From contig NC_015913.1 in assembly GCF_000270205.1 (NCBI RefSeq), positions 90,001 to 122,000 of the forward strand: DNA of 32,000 bases, read 5' to 3'. Shown here piece by piece: positions 19,774 through 30,363 of the stretch; position 1 is the first letter of the stretch, and every line of letters begins with the position of its first letter. The notes beneath the pieces were generated by a model. The model did no database searches, had not been told where the DNA came from, and saw nothing but the letters and a program-made list of their open reading frames with translations. The stretch is from Candidatus Arthromitus sp. SFB-mouse-Japan (lineage in GTDB: Bacteria; Bacillota; Clostridia; Clostridiales; Clostridiaceae). Position numbers and translations under genes: made by a program.

Positions 19774-19807
19774 ACATTAGTATCTTTTGATACTAATGTT
19801 TTTTTTG
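19774..19807 (+). terminator. Rho-independent terminator after pyk
   Basis: ACATTAGTATC (19774-19784), loop TTTT, GATACTAATGT (19789-19799), then a T8 run. It overlaps the N-terminal extension of the next ORF in the ORF track, which argues against that extension. Confidence 0.7.
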
Positions 19808-19831
19808 ATTAAGGAGGAAAATTTTTTAAGT

Positions 19832-21217
19832 ATGGTGGATGTTGCTAATAAGTACATAGTAAAGATTGAGGATTATGATAGTAAGGGAAATGGAGTTTCA
19901 CATATAGACGATTTAGTTGTTTTTGTACCTAATACCATAGTTGGCGAAATTGTTGAGATATGTATAGAAAAGGTAAATAAGAATTTTTTAAGAGGTAGAG
20001 TTAATGAAGTGCTTTCAGTATCTGAATCAAGAGTATTGCCTATATGTGAGATATATGAAAAATGTGGTGGATGTAATATTCAGCACATGAATTATAAGGA
20101 GCAAATTAGATTTAAAGAAAGTAAAATAATAAATACATTAAATAAAATAGGTGATATACGGAATATTAAGATGGAAAAATTCTATGCGATGTCTATTCCA
20201 TATGAGTATAGGAATAAAGTTCAGGTACCATTTGGATTAAGTGATTCTGGTGTTAAAGCTGGATTTTATGAAAAAAATACTCATAATATTATCAATATGG
20301 ACTTCTGTCATATACAGTTTCACGAAGGTAATGATATTGTTAAGGAAACTAGAGAATATATAAAAAAAAATAATATAAAGCCTTATGATGAGAGTGCTAA
20401 TTATAAAAAAGGTTGTGATTATGGTCTTGTAAGACATTTGCTCATTAGAAAGGGATATAATACAAATGAAATCATGCTTGTAATTGTGTTAACTAGAGAT
20501 GACGAGGAATTTTTAAATGGGTATATGGATTTTATATTAGAAAAATTTAAGAATATAAAGACAATAATAGTTAACGTAAATAATGAAATAACAAATGTTA
20601 TTCTTGGAAAATACGAGAGGGTATTGTATGGTGATGGTTATATAAAAGACAAGATAAATGATTTTATATTTAGAATACATAGTAAATCATTTTTTCAGGT
20701 TAATACAAAACAATCTGAGAAGTTATATTCGGCTGCAATTGAAATGTGTGATTTAAAATTTGGAGATATTCTTCTAGATGCTTATTGTGGGATTGGTACC
20801 ATAGGTATATGTGCAAGTAGAAAAATAAAGCAGGTCTATGGTATAGAGGAAGTTAAAGAGAGCATAGTTGATGCTAATGAAAATAAGATTATAAATAATA
20901 TTAAAAATATAGAATTTATACATGGTAAGGTTGAAGATGAAATATTTAATTTAGTAAATAGCGGGGTTAATATAAATGCTGTTATTTTAGATCCTCCAAG
21001 AAAGGGTGTAAAGGAGAGGGTCTTACATAAAATAAGAGATATTAACTGTAGAAAAATAGTTTATATTTCATGTGATGTATCGACTCTCTCTAGAGATGCT
21101 AAGATATTAAATTCCCTTGGCTATAAGATTGATAAAATTAGAGGAGTTGATATGTTTTGTCAAACATATCATGTAGAAACTATTGTTAGATTTACTTTGC
21201 GACCATCTGGATTTTAA
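19832..21217 (+). CDS. 23S rRNA (uracil-5-)-methyltransferase, RlmD/RumA family
   Basis: TRAM-like N-terminus, Fe-S cysteine cluster CEIYEKCGGC, SAM motif LDAYCGIGTIG and catalytic-Cys region VYISCD. The ATG at 19832 is preferred because the TTG at 19787 lies inside the pyk terminator. The start remains uncertain because the SD spacing is long. Confidence 0.85.
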   Translation: MVDVANKYIVKIEDYDSKGNGVSHIDDLVVFVPNTIVGEIVEICIEKVNKNFLRGRVNEVLSVSESRVLPICEIYEKCGGCNIQHMNYKEQIRFKESKIINTLNKIGDIRNIKMEKFYAMSIPYEYRNKVQVPFGLSDSGVKAGFYEKNTHNIINMDFCHIQFHEGNDIVKETREYIKKNNIKPYDESANYKKGCDYGLVRHLLIRKGYNTNEIMLVIVLTRDDEEFLNGYMDFILEKFKNIKTIIVNVNNEITNVILGKYERVLYGDGYIKDKINDFIFRIHSKSFFQVNTKQSEKLYSAAIEMCDLKFGDILLDAYCGIGTIGICASRKIKQVYGIEEVKESIVDANENKIINNIKNIEFIHGKVEDEIFNLVNSGVNINAVILDPPRKGVKERVLHKIRDINCRKIVYISCDVSTLSRDAKILNSLGYKIDKIRGVDMFCQTYHVETIVRFTLRPSGF

Positions 21218-21255: not shown

Positions 21256-21284
21256 TTGCCTACATAAAATTAATATGTAGGCAA
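21256..21284. repeat. 11-bp perfect inverted repeat at the chromosome/prophage junction
   Basis: TTGCCTACATA (21256-21266) and TATGTAGGCAA (21274-21284) around a 7-nt loop. The repeat spans the integrase stop codon. Confidence 0.6.
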
Positions 21285-22460
21285 TATTATATTTTCAAAT
21301 ATATCTACTGATTGTTTAGCTAACTTATCTGTATTATGGGTATAAGTATTAAGTGTAGTTTGAATATTATTATGTCCTAGTCTATGTTGTACATCTTTAA
21401 TGTTAGCACCATTTTCAACTAGTAATGTAGCGTGGGTGTGTCTTAATGAGTGGAAATTAAAAGGTATACCTAATTCATAATTAATAACACGCGACGCGTA
21501 TTTAAATGAATCTGGTGTTAATAACATTCCGTTACTTTTTACGCACACCATATTTAATAAATGTTCTTTTAAATTTAGAGAACTTGTTGTGATTTTATCA
21601 TTTATGTTGTATTGTTTTATATAATGTTCTCCGTATTCTAAGCGTTTAATATCAATATATCTTTTATGATACTTTAGTGCGTTTTTCAAGGTATTACCTA
21701 TATTAATTATTCTGCTAGAGGAGGTGGTCTTAGGTTCACCAAAATACCAAGACGTATCCTTTTTATATATTAGTTTGTTAATATTGATTGTGTTATTATC
21801 TAAATCAATGTCATCCCACGTTAAACCCATTGCTTCACCTATGCGACAACCAGTATGATAACCAATCATTAAAGGGATATAGAAAGATGATCTTTCGGGA
21901 AAGCGTTTTATTATAGCGTTAAAATCATCATTAGTTATAATTTTATGTTTATCTGTAGTTTTGGTATTATTATACTTAGGAATTTTAACATATTGCATAG
22001 GGTTATTCTTTAGAAAATTCATAGGATGTACTGAGTAGTTAAGGGAACCACTCAATAAGGATATTATATTATTTAGATGATTTTTTGATATACCAGTTAA
22101 ATATTTGCTATTTATAAAATCTTGTAATTTACCAGGAGTTAAAGAAGTTAATTTTAAAATGCCTAAAGAGGGTTTAATATGTTTATCTATTATTAATCTA
22201 TAAGAGCGTTGAGTATTGTATCTGCAATTTAACAGTACATAAGCATCAAACCATAAATCCATATAATCTGATACTGATATATTTGTTTTTTGAAGTTGTT
22301 CACCATTTTCGTAATCTTCCAAAGCCTTTCTTAAAGCTGCTTCAGCTTCTTTTTTGGTTCTACCTCCAACTCTTTCAATCCTTTTTCTTTTTCCGTCGAC
22401 CCTAGCTGCCTCAAACGAGTAATACCACTTGTCTCCTCGTTTTCTAACACTTCCGGTCAT
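21270..22460 (-). CDS. int: Phage tyrosine integrase
   Basis: 396 aa. Catalytic region GCRIGEAMGLTWDDIDL, HSLRHTHATLL, LGH....T...YTH (R..HxxR..Y). SD GGAGATATAAAA precedes the ATG. Confidence 0.93.
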   Translation of the reverse strand: MTGSVRKRGDKWYYSFEAARVDGKRKRIERVGGRTKKEAEAALRKALEDYENGEQLQKTNISVSDYMDLWFDAYVLLNCRYNTQRSYRLIIDKHIKPSLGILKLTSLTPGKLQDFINSKYLTGISKNHLNNIISLLSGSLNYSVHPMNFLKNNPMQYVKIPKYNNTKTTDKHKIITNDDFNAIIKRFPERSSFYIPLMIGYHTGCRIGEAMGLTWDDIDLDNNTININKLIYKKDTSWYFGEPKTTSSSRIINIGNTLKNALKYHKRYIDIKRLEYGEHYIKQYNINDKITTSSLNLKEHLLNMVCVKSNGMLLTPDSFKYASRVINYELGIPFNFHSLRHTHATLLVENGANIKDVQHRLGHNNIQTTLNTYTHNTDKLAKQSVDIFENIILPTY

Positions 22461-22694: not shown

Positions 22695-23999
22695 ATGTTT
22701 ACTGGTATTAAGCTTAAGAATTTTAAATCACTAGTTGATTTTGAAGTTAAATTCCCTAGAAATAGAAAATTAGTTATAATTTATGGAGAAAATGGTGTTG
22801 GAAAATCTAATTTTATAGATGCCTTTAGTATTTTGAGAAAACTAGTTACTGGTAGACCCTTTGATGTAGATGATTTTTTGGAATTGGCAAATCTTAAATT
22901 CAATCACGGTCTTAGTAATATAGACATGGATGCTGAAGTTATTACAGATTTGTTTAAGACATCTAACCTTAAAAGGATTATTGAGTCATGTAAGACTATA
23001 AACTCAGAAGGCGAAAATATGGTATTATCATTTGACTTTACTTTAAGAGGAAAAAAAGGATCGTATATTATAGAAACTGATGATAATAGGCTAATATCTG
23101 AGAGATTAGAATATGTATATAATAAGCAAATTGTTGAATTCTTTAATGTTAATAATGATGAAATTTATTTAAACGAAAAAGTGATAAAAAATAAAGAATA
23201 TTACGAAGAACTGATAAATAATTGTGAAAAGTATTGGGGTAAAAATACTTTGACGTCTATGATATTTAAAGATATACAGTCAAAAAACGATAAGTATATG
23301 TCTAAATCTCTGACTAAGAATATGATAGAGATAATCGATTACTTTAGTAGTTTAAATATTAGTGTCAGTGGTCAAATCTTATTTCCTGGTTTACATTTAG
23401 GTGAAGGAATTACACAGATGTCAAATCAGGCAGAACTAGATAAGAATGAAAAAATTTTGGATGATATATTCACTCGTTTATATCCAGATATAAAACAGGT
23501 GTATTACAAAAAAGAGATAATTGATGATGGTAAAATAAATTATAAGTTGTACTTTAAAAAGCTTGTAGGTAATAAAATTTTAGATATAGATATTGAACGA
23601 GAGTCTAAAGGTACCAAACAAGTATTAAATATAACGAAACAAATTTTATATGGTTTAGATAAACAAGTGTTAATCATCGATGAATTTGATACAGGTATAC
23701 ATGATATATTAGCTAAATCTATGTTGCAGAGTTTATATGATAGTTTAGATATGCAAATAATTATTACTACGCATAATACATTACTCATAGAAGCTAAAGA
23801 CTTATGTAAAAACGCATATGTACTAACGCATAATATTGATGGAAGTAAGGATATGATAGCTATATCTGATTTTGAAAAAAGAATCCATAGTAATTTAAAT
23901 ATTAGAGATAGATATCTAAGAGGAATGTATGGAGGTGTGCCAATCCCGCTCGATATAGATTTTTCTGATTATAGTGATGCTAATTTGGAGGATTGTTAG
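22695..23999 (+). CDS. ABC/AAA_21-type ATPase (COG1106-like; AbiLi / AriA / OLD-ATPase-like), defence candidate
   Basis: Walker A GENGVGKSNF at residues ~31-40, signature-like ESKGTKQVL, Walker B/D-loop VLIIDEFDTGIH, H-loop ITTHN and a C-terminal RDRYLRGMYGGVP tail. SD GGTGGTGA precedes the ATG. Confidence 0.8.
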   Translation: MFTGIKLKNFKSLVDFEVKFPRNRKLVIIYGENGVGKSNFIDAFSILRKLVTGRPFDVDDFLELANLKFNHGLSNIDMDAEVITDLFKTSNLKRIIESCKTINSEGENMVLSFDFTLRGKKGSYIIETDDNRLISERLEYVYNKQIVEFFNVNNDEIYLNEKVIKNKEYYEELINNCEKYWGKNTLTSMIFKDIQSKNDKYMSKSLTKNMIEIIDYFSSLNISVSGQILFPGLHLGEGITQMSNQAELDKNEKILDDIFTRLYPDIKQVYYKKEIIDDGKINYKLYFKKLVGNKILDIDIERESKGTKQVLNITKQILYGLDKQVLIIDEFDTGIHDILAKSMLQSLYDSLDMQIIITTHNTLLIEAKDLCKNAYVLTHNIDGSKDMIAISDFEKRIHSNLNIRDRYLRGMYGGVPIPLDIDFSDYSDANLEDC

Positions 24000-24587
24000 A
24001 TGGGAGGTAAGAAAGCACAAATACAGTATTTACGCTGTATACTAATTTGTCATGGCAAATCAGAAAAAGAATTTATGGAGACTATAAAGCAAAATTTACG
24101 TTTAAAGATACACATAGAGTCAGATAAAAAAGGAAGTAAGTCTATTCAGATAAATAGTCTGAATAAGACTTTGAAAAATCACAAGTATGGTAAACGTGAT
24201 AATTTTTTAAGATATTTTGAGGATATAGAATTAATAAAAGGTAAAATAACATCTGAGTTTAAAATTTTTACGTTATTGGATACGGATGATAAAGAAAAAG
24301 AAATAAACTTGATAAAATATTTGAATAAAGAAATGTTTAAAGAGCATCATCTTTATGATCATATAGTACCTATTTATAATACTCCTAATTTAGAAAGTGT
24401 TTTTGAAGAAATTGGTCATGTATTTAAGAATAAAGGCGAGGCAAGAAAAAGAGAGTATAAAGATTTATTGAAACCATATCCAACCCCTAAACTTGCTCGG
24501 AATTATTTAAAAGATTTATCGGGAAAATTTGAAAAGAGCAAAAACACTAATCTTAATCATGTTATTAATTTTCTCCTTAATATATAA
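24000..24587 (+). CDS. Small Toprim-like partner protein (RloB / DUF4276 / AbiLii-like), defence candidate
   Basis: The ATG abuts the ATPase stop (TAGATG) and is preceded by GGAGG. The N-terminal ILICHGKSEKEF resembles the CEGxxTE strand-turn of RloB-type Toprim proteins. A later LLDTDD resembles the Toprim DxD motif. Family assignment is from memory of motifs, not from a search. Confidence 0.6.
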   Translation: MGGKKAQIQYLRCILICHGKSEKEFMETIKQNLRLKIHIESDKKGSKSIQINSLNKTLKNHKYGKRDNFLRYFEDIELIKGKITSEFKIFTLLDTDDKEKEINLIKYLNKEMFKEHHLYDHIVPIYNTPNLESVFEEIGHVFKNKGEARKREYKDLLKPYPTPKLARNYLKDLSGKFEKSKNTNLNHVINFLLNI

Positions 24588-24602: not shown

Positions 24603-24768
24603 GAAATATAAGCTTACATTAAATTTATAAGTGCTTCGCGAAGCTATATTAATACTTGATTGTAGTAGAATACTTGGTATTGCTATTCATAGATGAATTA
24701 TGTAGAATATTAGTGTTCGCAAAAATAGTATGTCTATTTATGATTAGCAGCTGTTTTTAAATTTAACG
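24603..24768 (+). promoter_or_regulatory. CRISPR leader 1 (166 bp) with predicted sigma-70-type promoter
   Basis: Near-identical to 26605-26770 (about 3 substitutions by eye). -35 TTGCTA (24680-24685), 17-nt spacer, -10 TAGAAT (24703-24708). Contains the palindrome GCTTCGCGAAGC at 24633-24644. Confidence 0.6.
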
Positions 24769-24999
24769 GTCGCACCTCACGCAGGTGCGTGGATTGAAAT
24801 GAGGATAAAGGAGTTGGCAATTTACATAGTGCATCGTCGCACCTCACGCAGGTGCGTGGATTGAAATTACGTAGTTCTATAACTTTACCAATTATGTGTA
24901 GTCGCACCTCACGCAGGTGCGTGGATTGAAATATATCTAATATTTTAGCTAACTCTAACTGAGTCAGGTCGCACCTCACGTAGGTGCGTGGATTGAAGG
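24769..24999 (+). CRISPR. Mini-CRISPR array 1: four 32-bp repeats and three spacers (35/33/35 bp); type I-C-like repeat
   Basis: Repeats GTCGCACCTCACGCAGGTGCGTGGATTGAAAT at 24769-24800, 24836-24867, 24901-24932 and 24968-24999. The last repeat is degenerate (C14T, terminal AT>GG). Internal hairpin GCACCT/AGGTGC. The leader lies upstream and the degenerate repeat is distal, which gives + orientation. Confidence 0.93.
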
Positions 25000-25014
25000 T
25001 GCCAGACATATAAT

Positions 25015-25048
25015 AAAACCCCACTTGAAATTAATCAGGTGGGGTTTT
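25015..25048. terminator. Bidirectional hairpin between array 1 and the truncated repressor
   Basis: AAAACCCCAC (25015-25024) pairs with GTGGGGTTTT (25039-25048), with A/T runs on both sides. Confidence 0.6.
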
Positions 25049-25434
25049 AAAATCTCCGTCTAAGTTCTACGACCTTTCCGATTATGTGTATAGGTTTATC
25101 TGCAATGTCATTTTTATCGTAGTACATAGGCTCATATCTAGGATTTAACGACACAAGGCTTATACCGTCCTTGTGTTTTATTATTTTTTTACACGTTGCC
25201 TCGTCACCATTAACGCAGACTATAGCTATGTCTCCAGAGTTAACGTCTTGCTGTTTCCTGACTATTACGACATCTCCAGCATCCATTGTGGGAGACATCG
25301 AATCACCCTTGATTACGAGAGCAAAATACTCTCCTTGAGATGCAAGTTTAGGTGATATCTCTTCCCAACCGATAATTTCTTCAATCGCCGTTATGGGTAT
25401 ACCAGCTATAACAGTACCTAGTATGGGTATTTTA
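25047..25434 (-). pseudogene. 5'-truncated copy of the LexA-like repressor (S24 peptidase domain only)
   Basis: Homologous to 27113-27499. Encodes KIPILGTVIAGIPITAIEE..GDSMSPTMDAGD..HIIGKVVELRRRF but has no HTH domain. The reading frame has no start codon upstream of MSPTMD. Homology stops at ~25434. Confidence 0.8.
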
Positions 25435-25604: not shown

Positions 25605-26375
25605 TTGGTGAAGAAGGAGATAATATGGGGGTGTTTAAACATGGAAGAAAAAGAAAAGTTGCTTAAAAAATCTAAAGAAATTTTTAGCTTAGTTAGTTGT
25701 ATGTATTGTTATTATAGTGGTCCTTATAAAATTGAAACTGTTTGTATTTTATTATGTAATGCTTGGGAATTAATGTTGAAAGCTTATATAATCGGTAAGA
25801 AGGGGAAAGAAGGAATAGTATATAAAAATAAACAGAATAAGGGTAGGACTATTGGATTAAATGAATGTATAAGTAAAGTATTTACGAATAAGCATGATAT
25901 ATTACGTAAACATTTGGAGTCTGTAATTAGATATAGGAATTCGGTTGTACATTATACAGTTGATAGTTTTGACTTATCTTTATACTCTAAAATAGAGTAT
26001 TGTATAGTGAATTTTAAAGCGAAAATGTGTGAACTTCACAATGTTAATATGTCCGATATGATAGTTAACCAGGCTAATGAAGAAATCTTAAAAAATGATG
26101 TCGATTTGTATAAGTATAGTAAAAAGAGTTTGTGTAGGGAAATAAATAATGTATTGAAATCTTTGGGGATTGAGTTTAAAATCGATAGTCAATCCTTTGA
26201 ATTGTTTGATAGGGTGTACGGAATTAAAGAAAATAAAGAGTATTGTCTTATAAGTAATGTTAATAACAGGCCATCTTATAGATATTCATCAAGAGTTTTA
26301 AATTTTATCGTAGGATTGATACAAAAAAATCCTAACAATATTAAAGAAGTCTTAAAGAATAAAATAAAAAAATAA
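25605..26375 (+). CDS. HEPN-like (Rx4H motif; DUF3644-like) protein, abortive-infection/toxin candidate
   Basis: The motif NAWELMLKAYII, then ~55 residues, then IRYRNSVVHY (R-N-S-V-V-H = Rx4H) matches my recollection of DUF3644/HEPN proteins. The start is ambiguous: TTG 25605 in the ORF track or ATG 25641. Confidence 0.6.
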   Translation: MVKKEIIWGCLNMEEKEKLLKKSKEIFSLVSCMYCYYSGPYKIETVCILLCNAWELMLKAYIIGKKGKEGIVYKNKQNKGRTIGLNECISKVFTNKHDILRKHLESVIRYRNSVVHYTVDSFDLSLYSKIEYCIVNFKAKMCELHNVNMSDMIVNQANEEILKNDVDLYKYSKKSLCREINNVLKSLGIEFKIDSQSFELFDRVYGIKENKEYCLISNVNNRPSYRYSSRVLNFIVGLIQKNPNNIKEVLKNKIKK

Positions 26376-26604: not shown

Positions 26605-26770
26605 GAAATATAAGCTTACATTAAATTTATAAGTGCTTCGCGAAGCTATATTAATACTTGATTGTAGTAGAATAATTGGTATTGCTATTCATAGATGAAT
26701 TATGTAGAATATTAGTGTTCGCAAAAATGGTGTGTCTATTTATGATTAGCAGCTGTTTTTAAATTTAACG
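26605..26770 (+). promoter_or_regulatory. CRISPR leader 2 (166 bp) with predicted promoter
   Basis: Duplicate of leader 1. -35 TTGCTA (26682-26687), 17-nt spacer, -10 TAGAAT (26705-26710). Palindrome GCTTCGCGAAGC at 26635-26646. Confidence 0.6.
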
Positions 26771-27067
26771 GTCGCACCTCACGCAGGTGCGTGGATTGAA
26801 ATTTATTTGTCCAAATTCTAAGTTGTCAAATATTTTGTCGCACCTCACGCAGGTGCGTGGATTGAAATTAGTAGGCTTGTCCTCCTTACTTTTAAACTCC
26901 CGTCGCACCTCATACAGGTGCGTGGATTGAAATTAAGATTTTTTATTGATGTGTACATAATCACCCCTGTCGCACCTCACGCAGGTGCGTGGATTGAAAT
27001 CTTTATAATGGATTTGCTTTATGAGTTATTTAGATGTCGCACCTCACGCAGGTGCGTGGATTGAAGG
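26771..27067 (+). CRISPR. Mini-CRISPR array 2: five 32-bp repeats and four spacers (34/33/35/35 bp); same repeat family
   Basis: Repeats at 26771-26802, 26837-26868, 26902-26933 (loop variant CATAC), 26969-27000 and 27036-27067 (terminal AT>GG, as in array 1). Confidence 0.93.
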
Positions 27068-27082
27068 TGTCATACATATAAT

Positions 27083-27114
27083 AAAAACCACTTGAAATTA
27101 ATCGAGTGGTTTTT
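27083..27114. terminator. Bidirectional hairpin between array 2 and the repressor gene
   Basis: AAAAACCACT (27083-27092) pairs with AGTGGTTTTT (27105-27114). Confidence 0.6.
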
Positions 27115-27826
27115 AAAATCTCCGTCTAAGTTCTACGACTTTACCAATTATGTGTATAGGTTTGCTTACAATGTCATTTTTATCATAGTACATAGGCTCA
27201 TATCTAGGATTTAACGACACAAGGCTTATACCGTCCTTGTGTTTTATTATTTTTTTACATGTTGCTTCATCACCATTAACGCAAACTATAGCTATGTCTC
27301 CAGAGTTAACGTCTTGCTGTTTCCTGACTATTACGACATCTCCAGCATCCATTGTGGGAGACATGGAGTCTCCTTTAATTTTTAACGCAAAGTACTCTCC
27401 TTGAGATGCAAGTTTAGGTGATATCTCTTCCCATCCGATAATCTCCTCAATCGCCGATATTGGGATACCCGCTATTACGGTGCCTAGTATGGGTATTTTT
27501 ACGCAGGCTTGTACGTTTAGACCAAGACCATTTTTATATGATATTACTTTAGTAGAACTGGTAACTTGTATAGGTTGCTGTGCATTGATAAATTCAATAT
27601 GATCTTGATCATTTAATAGTACGGATTCATCGATTCCTAATGCTTGGGCAATTATTTTAATTTTGGACTGAGGAATATCGTTGATACCAGTCTCTATCTT
27701 ATTTATTGTAGACCTAGCTTTATAACCGCACCTTTTTGCCAATTCATCTTGCGACAATCCACGCATTAGTCTAATACGTTTGATTTTGTCGCCTAGTTTC
27801 TTTTTTTCAATATTATTAGTATCCAT
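27113..27826 (-). CDS. Phage repressor, LexA/CI-like (Xre HTH + S24 peptidase)
   Basis: The N-terminal HTH (LSQDELAKRCGYKARSTINKIETG) is followed by an S24 domain with the GDSM Ser and a downstream Lys (CKKI). It is divergent from a cro-like gene. Confidence 0.92.
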   Translation of the reverse strand: MDTNNIEKKKLGDKIKRIRLMRGLSQDELAKRCGYKARSTINKIETGINDIPQSKIKIIAQALGIDESVLLNDQDHIEFINAQQPIQVTSSTKVISYKNGLGLNVQACVKIPILGTVIAGIPISAIEEIIGWEEISPKLASQGEYFALKIKGDSMSPTMDAGDVVIVRKQQDVNSGDIAIVCVNGDEATCKKIIKHKDGISLVSLNPRYEPMYYDKNDIVSKPIHIIGKVVELRRRF

Positions 27827-28185: not shown

Positions 28186-28258
28186 CAAAGTAATGATAAA
28201 TAACGATAAGTTACGCTAAGTTACAACTAGTTAAATAATAACGTAAAAATAGATTGAA
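28186..28258. repeat. Intergenic linker cassette, copy 1 (others at 28807-28866 and 30091-30144)
   Basis: TTACGCTAAGTTACAACTAGTTAAATAATAACGTAAAAATAGATTG resembles TTACGCTACGTTACAACTAAGTAAATAATAACATAAAAAGGAGATTG in copy 2. In copy 1 the SD is decayed (ATAGATT versus AGGAGATT) and no gene follows. Confidence 0.7.
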
Positions 28259-28287: not shown

Positions 28288-28503
28288 TTACCTTCTCGTT
28301 GGGTCATCTGATCTACCGACCAAATAATCAATAGATATATTGTAATAATCAGCTAATTTAATCAACGTATCATATTTAGGTTTAGATTTCCCATATTCGA
28401 GATTTTGATATGATCTATCGTTGATTTTAAGATAATTGGCTATATCTAATTGTGTTAGATTATTAGATAATCTTAGGGTTTTTAGTCTATCTTTAAAATC
28501 CAT
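28288..28503 (-). CDS. Xre-family HTH protein (71 aa), leftward member of divergent pair 2
   Basis: MDFKDRLKTLRLSNNLTQLDIANYL..SIDYLVGRSDDPTRR. The GTG start at 28545 in the ORF track overlaps the + strand -35 box, so the ATG at 28503 is preferred. Paralogue of 29554-29772. Confidence 0.8.
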   Translation of the reverse strand: MDFKDRLKTLRLSNNLTQLDIANYLKINDRSYQNLEYGKSKPKYDTLIKLADYYNISIDYLVGRSDDPTRR

Positions 28504-28538
28504 AAAAACATACCTTATTAAAAAATAAATAAAAATAG

Positions 28539-28567
28539 TTGACACGAACTAAACCTCGTGATATAGT
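28539..28567 (+). promoter_or_regulatory. Promoter for the 63-aa HTH gene
   Basis: TTGACA (28539-28544), 17-nt spacer, TATAGT (28562-28567). The inverted repeat ACCTCGT/ACGAGGT (28553-28559 / 28579-28585) brackets the -10 element. Confidence 0.6.
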
Positions 28568-28614: not shown

Positions 28615-28806
28615 ATGAATAATTTAAAAAAAATTCGAAATAAAGCTGGTCTAACCCAGATGTATTTATCTAGTCTGATAAATATAAACGTGCGTAGCTA
28701 CCAGAGTATAGAGCTCGGTAAAAGTTTACCGAGAGTAGATAGAGCATTAGCAATAGCAAAGATATTAAATACAACTGTGGAAGAACTATTTGGTAAAGAT
28801 AAGTAA
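28615..28806 (+). CDS. Xre-family HTH protein (63 aa), rightward member of pair 2
   Basis: MNNLKKIRNKAGLTQMYLS..AKILNTTVEELFGKDK. SD AAAGGAGG. Paralogue of 29890-30090. Confidence 0.8.
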   Translation: MNNLKKIRNKAGLTQMYLSSLININVRSYQSIELGKSLPRVDRALAIAKILNTTVEELFGKDK

Positions 28807-28866
28807 TGCTAAATTACGCTACGTTACAACTAAGTAAATAATAACATAAAAAGGAGATTGAGACAA
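28807..28866. repeat. Intergenic linker cassette, copy 2
   Basis: Shares ..ATAATAACATAAAAAGGAGATTGAGACAA followed by ATGGCAAATGA with copy 3. The first five codons (MANDI) are shared by the two downstream genes. Confidence 0.7.
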
Positions 28867-28938
28867 ATGGCAAATGACATAAAAGTATTTGAGCATGATG
28901 AATTTGGACAAATAAGAACAGTTTTAATTAATGAATGA
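28867..28938 (+). pseudogene. Detached N-terminal fragment of the antirepressor Bro-N domain (frameshifted)
   Basis: A good SD is followed by ATG and MANDIKVFEHDEFGQIRTVLINE*. The tandem AATGAATG at 28930-28937 shifts the frame. Removing one AATG fuses this fragment in frame to the 28931 ORF (..IRTVLINDQTWFVGKDVARALGY). Confidence 0.65.
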
Positions 28939-29551
28939 CCAAACATGGTTTGTTGGAAAAGATGTAGCTAGGGCTTTAGGATATGCAAATGGAAGCAGAG
29001 ATATAAATAGACATGTTGAGATCGAGGATAAAGTTTTGAGAAAATTACCACAATACCAAAACGGTAGTTTGGTATCAAACACAGTATTAATCAACGAATC
29101 AGGATTGTACAGTTTAATTTTATCAAGCAAATTGCCTAAAGCTAAGAAATTTAAAAGATGGGTGACTAGTGATGTATTACCATCAATACGGAATACAGGG
29201 GCTTATATAGCATCTAACAGACTTGATGAGTTAGATGATAGGGTTAAAAAATTAGAATCTAAAACAGTAATTGGCAAAGCCCAAAAGCCGATTGTGGGGG
29301 TTAACACATCAGAAATAGCATTTAGTTTAGGGATATCGCCTAAAGCTTTATTTGAATTTTTGAGATCGACTGGAGTCGCTAATCGTAAATGGGATAAATA
29401 CGAGTTGCACGATGATTATGTTGGATTTGGTTATATCCAGAATGCAAGAGTAGCTTATGAGAGATGCTACGAAAAAAGAATTAAATTTTGGACGCTTAAA
29501 GGCGTTTGGTTTGTAATGGATTTATATAATAAAAGGCAAGCCAATAACTAA
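28931..29551 (+). CDS. Phage antirepressor (Bro-N + KilAC/ANT domains), 5' part split off by a frameshift
   Basis: WFVGKDVARALGY..INESGLYSLILSSKLPKAKKFKRWVTSDVLPSIR is a Bro-N domain. The C-terminal half is KilAC-like (IAFSLGISPKALFEFLRSTGV..). There is no SD before the ATG at 28931. Confidence 0.75.
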   Translation: MNDQTWFVGKDVARALGYANGSRDINRHVEIEDKVLRKLPQYQNGSLVSNTVLINESGLYSLILSSKLPKAKKFKRWVTSDVLPSIRNTGAYIASNRLDELDDRVKKLESKTVIGKAQKPIVGVNTSEIAFSLGISPKALFEFLRSTGVANRKWDKYELHDDYVGFGYIQNARVAYERCYEKRIKFWTLKGVWFVMDLYNKRQANN

Positions 29552-29889: not shown

Positions 29890-30090
29890 TTGCATAATAA
29901 TTTAAAGCCAATCCGTGATAAATTGGGTCTTACCCAAAATCAGGTATCAGATATAGCGGAGATAACTTTGAGAAGCTACCAAAACTATGAATACAGTAAA
30001 CGGATACCTAAAGTAAACATCGCATTAGATATAGCAAAAGCTCTTAACACAACGGTGGAAGAACTATTTAGTAATGATAAATTACAATAA
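29890..30090 (+). CDS. Xre-family HTH protein (66 aa), rightward member of pair 3
   Basis: The TTG start lies 6 nt after AAGGAG. (M)HNNLKPIRDKLGLTQNQVS..AKALNTTVEELFSNDKLQ aligns with the 63-aa paralogue. The start at 29821 in the ORF track lies inside the promoter. Confidence 0.75.
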   Translation: MHNNLKPIRDKLGLTQNQVSDIAEITLRSYQNYEYSKRIPKVNIALDIAKALNTTVEELFSNDKLQ

Positions 30091-30144
30091 ATTACGTTAA
30101 GTAATGATAAGTAACATAATAACACAAAAAGGAGATTAGGACAA
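30091..30144. repeat. Intergenic linker cassette, copy 3
   Basis: AAATTACGTTAAGTAATGATAAGTAACATAATAACACAAAAAGGAGATTAGGACAA precedes ATGGCAAATGAT. Confidence 0.7.
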
Positions 30145-30363
30145 ATGGCAAATGATATTTTATACACTGTACCCGAGGTATCAAAATTGATTAAAACCAA
30201 TCCATCTTATGTTTACACATTAATAAGATTAGGATTACTACCAGCGCTAAAACTTGGGAGTTTAAAAGTAAGGAGGACAAGCCTATTAGATTTTTTAGAG
30301 AGATTTGAAGGCAAGGATTTAACAGATTTGGAACATATAAGAGATTTAGAAACAGGAGTGTAA
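30145..30363 (+). CDS. Excisionase/MerR-type HTH DNA-binding protein (Xis-like)
   Basis: 72 aa. YTVPEVSKLIKTNPSYVYTLIRLGLLPALKLGS.KVRRTSLLDFLE is typical of excisionase-family HTH_17 domains. Confidence 0.65.
   Translation: MANDILYTVPEVSKLIKTNPSYVYTLIRLGLLPALKLGSLKVRRTSLLDFLERFEGKDLTDLEHIRDLETGV

Follow-up and report, generated by a model that had tools for sequence, protein, structure and literature searches.

How can a temperate phage carry, in a CRISPR array, a spacer that matches one of its own genes at every position but one, and from where would such a spacer have come? The question is raised by the 32,000-nucleotide stretch of the Candidatus Arthromitus sp. SFB-mouse-Japan genome analysed here (NC_015913.1, positions 90,001 to 122,000; hereafter the window), which contains chromosomal DNA and, beside it, the left arm of a prophage, the temperate phage SFBMP01 of this segmented filamentous bacterium (SFB). 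The prophage has two arrays, and the spacer at issue is the second of array 2 (A2s2; other spacers are named in the same manner). Its counterpart lies in a small helix-turn-helix (HTH) gene that we will call Xis-like, a putative label that draws on the Pfam HTH_17 assignment, a weak PHROG match, and the source annotation. The three features are as follows, PAM being the protospacer-adjacent motif.

26869-26901, + strand: array 2 spacer 2 (A2s2), TAGTAGGCTTGTCCTCCTTACTTTTAAACTCCC, 33 nt, between a consensus repeat (26837-26868) and a variant repeat (26902-26933).
30145-30363, + strand: the A2s2 target, a gene for a 72-aa protein of the HTH_17 excisionase family (Xis-like; Pfam PF12728, 8e-10).
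30256-30288, - strand: resident near-protospacer of A2s2, 32/33, with the mismatch at 30286 and the PAM-side triplet from 30289-30291.

The reverse complement of A2s2 is identical to 30256-30288 at 32 of 33 positions. For 300 shuffled versions of the spacer compared with both window strands, the best match was 20.2/33 on average and 23/33 at most, and the self-match is thus far above chance expectation. The sole mismatch, at 30286, is spacer position 3, where the spacer has G and the phage strand A; it falls in codon 48 (30286-30288), a TTA Leu codon for which CTA would be synonymous. The resident triplet 5' of the protospacer on that strand is ATC rather than TTC, this being the complement of codon 49 (GAT Asp, 30289-30291), and a GAA Glu codon would yield TTC on the opposite strand. 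The initial annotation had described the match, the mismatch, the synonymous TTA/CTA difference, and the ATC triplet from an alignment made by hand, and every detail was confirmed on recomputation, as was its statement, on realignment, that the resident gene differs from a perfect target only at seed position 3 and in the PAM. The encoded protein is BAK55879.1, annotated at source as 'excisionase family protein', with weak matches to PHROG 1877 (DNA-binding protein) and PHROG 66 (excisionase/regulator).

Is there, then, a perfect target for A2s2 elsewhere? The initial annotation had suggested that the array is aimed at sibling phages and had advised a search for phages with CTA and a GAA flank. 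We found this allele in two metagenome contigs, L047 (run SRR29367400) and L048 (run SRR25893102), reached through the 90% cluster of the resident protein by way of the variants P0144 and P0146, which carry D49E. The sequence in both is …AAAAATTC|TAGTAGGCTTGTCCTCCTTACTTTTAAACTCCC, which matches A2s2 at 33/33 behind a TTC PAM; in codons, the sibling allele is ...AGC CTA CTA GAA... and the resident allele ...AGC CTA TTA GAT.... The two loci are 91-97% identical to the window around the Xis-like gene and divergent upstream, and they are thus mosaic siblings of the window prophage. Over the 219 nt of the Xis-like gene, L048 differs from the resident at 6 positions and L047 at 10, the seed and PAM changes being two of these.

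Searches with the DNA itself returned less. A DNA-pattern scan for the A2s2 target found only L001, with the resident allele, among viral contigs and nothing among genome and metagenome contigs; a scan with the PAM-proximal 20-mer found nothing among viral contigs and, elsewhere, one chance match, L046, an unrelated contig of higher guanine-plus-cytosine (GC) content. More distant Glu49 homologues (P0002, P0009-P0014) have a TTC or CTC flank and all have A at spacer position 3, and with identities of only 29-30/33 they can be ruled out as the source of A2s2. One might also suppose that the G at spacer position 3 arose as a mutation of the spacer after its acquisition, as 36 loci all have A there, but L047 and L048 possess the G (CTA) along with TTC, and this idea was rejected.

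The next step is to ask whether A2s2 is a singular case or one of many. The comparison set consists of 21 related loci from SFB genomes and gut metagenomes (22 with the window), of which L001 was retrieved by the DNA-pattern scan and L002-L021 by way of contigs coding for the Xis-like protein or for a 99% relative of it. Wherever these loci include the junction, the integration site is the same, after a methyltransferase gene, as in the window:

19787-21217: TRAM/tRNA (uracil-5) methyltransferase-family gene, adjoining the left prophage end.
21270-22460, - strand: tyrosine integrase at the left prophage end, with the same junction in related loci.

In 14 of the 21 relatives, among them every one that extends over the region upstream of cI, arrays built on the repeat of the window occupy the same position. 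The 22 loci hold 42 distinct spacers, those at the trailer end being common to several loci and those at the leader end unique, as one would expect if acquisition is polarised and still under way; A2s2 and the adjacent A2s1 are confined to the window.

When all spacers were compared with all loci, the flank of the distinct near-perfect sibling protospacers was TTC in 18 of 25, TTT in 3, CTC in 1, and TCC in 1. The TTC stands immediately 5' of the protospacer on the spacer-identical strand, and the family flanks agree with the type I-C PAM hierarchy given in a published study (PMC5602111). The sibling genes targeted by family spacers are those for cI, HTH proteins, the antirepressor, and replication. 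Four of the seven window spacers have perfect or near-perfect TTC-flanked sibling targets (A1s2 33/33, A1s3 33/35, A2s2 33/33, and A2s4 34/35), the A1s2 target lying in the cI gene of L013, while A2s1 has only a partial match of 27/34. Matches in the opposite direction fall on the following features of the window.

27113-27826, - strand: cI-type repressor (HTH_3 plus Peptidase_S24), its protein an exact match to BAK55872.1.
27596-27630: perfect protospacer for L013 spacer 24, in the window cI gene, 35/35, TTC.
28399-28433, + strand: perfect protospacer for L019 spacer 37, 35/35, TTC, inside the HTH gene 28288-28545 (- strand).

By these matches, the targeting between the window prophage and its siblings is reciprocal. 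Across the spacer matching of the 22 loci, perfect self-targets are absent from carriers and present in siblings. Outside the family, a Megablast comparison of the prophage arm with 50,697 phage records gave only a 37-nt chance match to Staphylococcus phages.

Two further window spacers meet something like their target at home. A1s2 matches the 3' end of the resident cI gene (27124-27156) at 27 of 33 positions, with a TCC flank and mismatches at positions 1, 2, 4, 5, 13, and 14. The other is the partial match of A2s1:

28882-28915, - strand: partial match to A2s1 at the 5' end of the Bro-N antirepressor gene, 27/34, TTC flank, positions 1-16 identical and then 7 mismatches.

We considered whether this 16-nt, TTC-flanked match could act as a regulatory guide; there is a simpler cause, in that the matching portion covers the coding stretch for E-F-G-Q-I, a region of the Bro-N gene that is invariant in three aligned relatives. 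Apart from it, the window spacers other than A2s2 and A1s2 are without a resident counterpart. The orthologous resident sites are thus altered or absent, A2s2 facing ATC and a seed mismatch and A1s2 facing TCC and six mismatches.

What kind of CRISPR system do the arrays belong to? The elements concerned are listed here.

24769-24999, + strand: CRISPR array 1, 4 repeats and 3 spacers, degenerate terminal repeat.
26771-27067, + strand: CRISPR array 2, 5 repeats and 4 spacers, degenerate terminal repeat (…GAAGG).
26605-26770, + strand: array 2 leader, in a direct repeat family, approximately 166 nt; the array 1 leader (24603-24768) is a 98% copy.
26902-26933, + strand: variant repeat 3' of A2s2, with the loop changed from CACGC to CATAC, which would supply the 3' hairpin of the A2s2 CRISPR RNA (crRNA).

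The 32-nt repeat, GTCGCACCTCACGCAGGTGCGTGGATTGAAAT, occurs in nine copies in the window, divided between the two arrays. The window spacers are 33-35 nt long, within the 33-37 nt of type I-C arrays, an AT-rich leader lies on one side, and a degenerate terminal repeat, ending in …GAAGG, lies on the other. Promoter-like sites are found in the array 2 leader at 26682-26710 and 26718-26746, with a matching pair at 24680 and 24716 in the array 1 leader. The duplicated upstream leader with these sites, together with the degenerate last repeats, indicates that both arrays are read from left to right on the + strand.

The predicted fold of the repeat is a hairpin of 7 bp with a loop of 5 nt, after which comes …GGATTGAAAT. 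It shows the features of the type I-C class, namely a length of approximately 32 nt, an internal hairpin, a 3' end of …ATTGAAAT/C, and association with type I-C cas genes; an identical 31-nt repeat adjoins complete type I-C operons for Cas5c, Cas8c/Csd1, Cas7/Csd2, Cas4, Cas1c, and Cas2 in two unrelated genomes (L041, L045). No cas genes are present in the window, and an Rfam search gave no match.

The exact 31-nt repeat is also found in type I-C arrays of distant bacteria (L037-L045), among them Halanaerobiales, Paraglaciecola, Colwellia, Providencia, Paenibacillus, and Peptococcaceae. One of these, L041, is the metagenome-assembled genome of another member of the Clostridia from the mouse gut, in which a type I-C cas operon is present and the leader is not that of the SFB arrays. 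We examined it as a possible SFB cas locus and ruled it out on the leader and on its GC content of 33%.

The variant repeat that follows A2s2 deserves some care. It is the only non-consensus internal repeat in the 22 loci, and its predicted hairpin and energy (-10.6 kcal/mol) are unchanged. The same CATAC loop is found in the terminal repeat of the L013 array (L013 6423-6454), the first spacer of which is A2s3, and this combination suggests that array 2 is a fusion of two arrays or the product of recombination between arrays. That the variant is a scar of autoimmunity is unlikely, given the unchanged hairpin and the same loop in L013.

A separate irregularity is seen in L001 (1446-1479, also in L014 and L017), where one 'spacer' is composite: TTATTTGTGAATTATTTGATATAA, equal to the final 24 nt of a spacer of L012 (7737-7769, also in L018), runs on into GTCGCACCTC, the initial 10 nt of the repeat. 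This looks like an aberrant integration or a deletion inside the array.

The reading that best accommodates all of this, and which we hold to be probable with good confidence, is heterotypic superinfection exclusion, in which the phage arrays use host type I-C Cas proteins against sibling phages. Its starting points are direct observations, namely the array anatomy, the type I-C repeat, the TTC PAM, the cross- and reciprocal targeting, the perfect external target, and the polarity of the substitutions (set out below). The arrays would be transcribed from their own leader, and host Cas5 would cut the transcript into crRNAs. These would be loaded into the host type I-C Cascade, the host cas genes being those described with the genome (PMC3158464), and Cascade with Cas3 would destroy incoming DNA that has a matching protospacer beside 5'-TTC.

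The spacers would be taken from, and aimed at, mosaic siblings that use the same attachment site; CRISPR exclusion of siblings of a different immunity type would add to the repressor immunity that acts against like phages. A2s2 itself would have been acquired from a sibling with the CTA plus GAA allele of the Xis-like gene, and the position 3 seed mismatch and the ATC triplet would keep the guide from cutting the resident prophage. More generally, the placement of the two differences is best accounted for by a survivorship filter, such that a lysogen keeps only those spacers whose resident counterpart is absent or is disabled in PAM or seed. With an invader approximately 95-97% identical to the prophage, such a filter would require no mutation in the carrier.

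Several points weigh against this reading and should be kept in mind. In other type I systems, near-matches of this sort normally lead to primed acquisition. The placement of the two differences is not compelling in itself, for the probability that two random differences in a 36-nt site both fall in the PAM or positions 1-8 is ~(11/36)^2, or ~0.09; across the family, mismatches in carriers' self-matches are not significantly enriched in positions 1-8 (14/35 vs 40/125).

Protection of the resident site may also be incomplete. In a study of the Legionella type I-C system (PMC5602111), a T1A seed change raised plasmid transformation from ~1% to ~9%, only ~9-fold relief, six non-TTC PAMs still gave 95-99.5% protection and eleven more gave >50%, and many PAMs one base from TTC were partly active. 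ATC with one seed mismatch may thus not be fully safe for the resident, although it is plausible that the two differences together abolish interference, as the initial annotation supposed. Finally, array expression, processing, interference, and the use of host Cas proteins are inferred from sequence, and the host cas operon is known from the genome publication (PMC3158464).

The history of the allele bears most directly on the alternatives. The resident allele (TAATAGG… + ATC) is present in 21 of 21 related loci, A2s2 in none of them. All more distant homologues likewise have T at 30286, from which T is ancestral and CTA derived in the L047/L048 lineage. GAT, for its part, is derived, the distant homologues having GAA or GAG, but it is common to all sampled close relatives and not private to the carrier.

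One could read these data as escape at the level of the population, E49D having swept through mouse-SFB prophages under A2s2-like spacers, phage-borne or chromosomal, and A2s2 being a record of the losing allele. The derived GAT does destroy the PAM, the D allele is dominant (the exact D49 protein is encoded on 150 contigs and the two E49 variants on one contig each), and the remainder of the 33-nt site is invariant among close relatives. Set against this, SFB from laboratory mice, closely related to one another, make up most of the sample, D is common in unrelated homologues at what is a variable codon (E 33, D 16, K 11, and N 6 at codon 49 across the wider family), and no other spacer against the site was found among the 42 prophage-array spacers. 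We regard such a sweep as unlikely, if worth bearing in mind.

The initial annotation had left two histories side by side, acquisition of the spacer from a near-identical competitor and escape of the carrier. The first fits best. The second, in which a perfect self-matching spacer was acquired and the carrier's own gene then mutated at the seed (C>T) and the PAM (GAA>GAT), has in its favour that both differences lie where escape mutations are expected and that GAT is derived. However, TTA plus GAT is identical in all the spacer-less relatives and T is ancestral, and hence the carrier did not mutate to escape its own spacer; the breadth of the D49 protein and the variability of codon 49 point the same way. 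Carrier-specific escape is, in our estimation, very improbable.

Could the arrays be inert relics, or RNA decoys whose repeat transcripts sequester the Cas proteins of the host much as RNA anti-CRISPRs do, so that the self-match is of no consequence? The phage is without cas genes, and phage-borne repeat units that act as decoys are known. Yet the leader and repeats are strongly conserved (67 of 69 non-terminal repeats have the consensus sequence), spacers turn over at the leader end with trailer spacers shared, and targets have the correct TTC PAM, with carriers free of the perfect self-targets that siblings possess. Conservation, turnover, TTC targets, and the lack of perfect self-targets argue for ongoing acquisition and selection for function, and we give the relic or decoy idea very little credence.

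There is equally little to recommend a guide in active use against its own carrier, with weak, non-cleaving Cascade binding at the resident Xis-like gene despite ATC and the seed mismatch, which would damp excision or early-operon transcription, together with destruction of recombinants that gain CTA plus GAA. If it were true, the near-self guide would be both a CRISPR lysogeny lock and a recombination barrier that separates prophage lineages. The related notion of self-regulation, in which the near-cognate crRNA guides a non-cleaving Cascade to the Xis-like gene or its mRNA and damps excision or early lytic expression as CreA/CreR do, is the least credible of all: there are type I precedents for guides that match only in part and repress without cutting, and the crRNA sequence pairs with the coding strand of a gene in the early operon, but the perfect TTC-flanked external target explains A2s2 as ordinary immunity, the resident site is without the canonical PAM and the matched seed that Cascade binding needs, and 21 siblings have the same gene without the spacer, which is not what one expects of a conserved regulatory part.

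With exclusion of siblings through host Cas proteins as the preferred reading, the surroundings of the arrays can be considered. Positions 1-21217 of the window are occupied by housekeeping genes (uvrA, an ftsW-like gene, a penicillin-binding protein, uvrC, murB, rapZ, whiA, asparagine synthase, DNA polymerase III alpha, pfk, pyk, and the TRAM/tRNA methyltransferase-family gene). Within the prophage, the remaining features on the integrase side and between the arrays are these.

22695-24587: AbiL-like two-gene cargo, a 434-aa AAA_21 ATPase (best PADLOC match AbiLi, 1e-40) and a 195-aa protein without a family match.
25047-25298, - strand: duplicated cI 3' fragment, S24 domain only, downstream of array 1.
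25605-26375: 256-aa DUF3644 plus EC042_2821 restriction-endonuclease-like protein between the arrays, PADLOC candidate PDC-S19 (6e-54), present in most relatives.

With this two-gene cargo the prophage probably brings an abortive-infection pair of AbiL type. The order is integrase, AbiL-like pair, array 1, cI fragment, PDC-S19-like gene, array 2, full cI, HTH pairs and Bro-N, and the HTH_17 gene; the cas-less, leader-bearing arrays are thus placed between the cargo at the integrase end and cI. Between cI and the Xis-like gene come the Bro-N antirepressor and several pairs of HTH genes in divergent orientation, and a replication module follows.

A unit of leader, array, and cI 3' end is tandemly duplicated (24603-25341 vs 26605-27407, 98% and 92% identity), with the PDC-S19-like gene between the copies. 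Relatives have one or two such units, with varying cargo ahead of them (AbiL-like, PDC-S19-like, or three unknown genes). Array and cI 3' end together look like a recombination anchor for the exchange of defence cassettes.

The HTH region has its own duplications. A 60-nt AT-rich element (GTAATGATAAATWACG…TAAGT…AATAATAACA) occurs three times (28190-28249, 28793-28852, and 30071-30130), each copy after a short HTH gene and immediately before the next start codon, and there is a longer repeat of 28684-28880 at 29962-30158. The antirepressor and Xis-like genes have a common upstream region and the same first residues, MAND(I). HTH modules vary in number and order among relatives, and two Xis-like genes are found in L015-L017 and L020. 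On these arrangements the region is likely to be a recombination hotspot that generates mosaic siblings.

The Bro-N antirepressor gene is split into two frames (28867-28938 and 28931-29551) by a 4-bp duplication, AATG (28930-28937). The frame from the ATG at 28867 ends after 23 codons at 28936-28938, and the remainder restarts at the ATG at 28931; L002 and L013 are without the duplication. This could be either a true frameshift or a sequencing error.

How much of this was known? The SFB-mouse-Japan genome paper described SFBMP01 as an apparently intact prophage with two cas-less CRISPR loci of 3 and 4 units, which share the 32-bp repeat and a ~160-bp leader with chromosomal CRISPR3, a locus of 13 units and six cas genes (PMC3158464). 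No significant database homology was reported for any spacer in 2011 (Kuwahara et al. 2011, PMC3158464), and that account mentions neither the self-match of 32/33 nor targets in siblings, a TTC PAM, or reciprocal targeting; our literature search found no report of any of these.

A close parallel is in the Sulfolobales portogloboviruses SPV1 and SPV2, whose mini-arrays serve in interviral conflict, with added exclusion of this kind proposed for them, and in which point mutations keep the orthologues of the targeted loci from being self-targeted (Medvedeva et al. 2019, PMC6858448). Like these mini-arrays, the SFB arrays are cas-less, have a leader, are aimed at close relatives reciprocally, and have targets near the array, with the carrier copies mutated. 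The differences are that in SFB a temperate phage of a bacterium is concerned, the host is a gut symbiont related to Clostridia, the repeat is of type I-C, and the PAM is TTC; that SPV1 and SPV2 have 1-2 spacers, whereas the SFB family has 3-10 per array; and that the SFB arrays sit in a swappable cassette with defence genes beside cI, all siblings competing for one attachment site. The arrays of Clostridioides difficile prophages, cited as a precedent by the SFB authors (PMC3158464), are likewise cas-less, carried by temperate phages of a Clostridia host, and built on the host's repeat, but they are of type I-B, and the SFB arrays (type I-C) differ from them in repeat, PAM, and host.

Prophage arrays of C. 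difficile target other C. difficile phages. It is also recognized, from work on CRISPR autoimmunity, that self-targeting spacers can be tolerated through defects in the PAM or the seed. A2s2 resembles such tolerated spacers in that it coexists with a near-identical target that has a non-consensus PAM and a seed mismatch. It is unlike an autoimmune accident of acquisition in having a true external target, the near-self match being a by-product of targeting a close relative, and in being flanked by a variant repeat that keeps its hairpin. The arrays themselves (since 2011) and the kind of system, phage-borne cas-less arrays directed at siblings with the carrier copy mutated, are therefore already known; what is new are the SFB spacer targets, the empirical PAM, the reciprocal network at a single attachment site, and the near-perfect self-match with a perfect wild target.

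SFB, a gut symbiont of key importance in modulating immunity, is very difficult to grow in culture, so that hardly anything is known of the biology of its phages. The locus is well suited to measuring how much protection ATC and a single seed mismatch afford in a type I-C system. It also makes the point that a 'seed plus PAM' pattern can stem from a filter on spacer retention, without an escape mutation in the carrier. For this family of prophages, it offers a resolved natural case of CRISPR turned by phage against phage, complete with the guide, its perfect wild target, the disarmed copy in the carrier, and the reciprocal matches.

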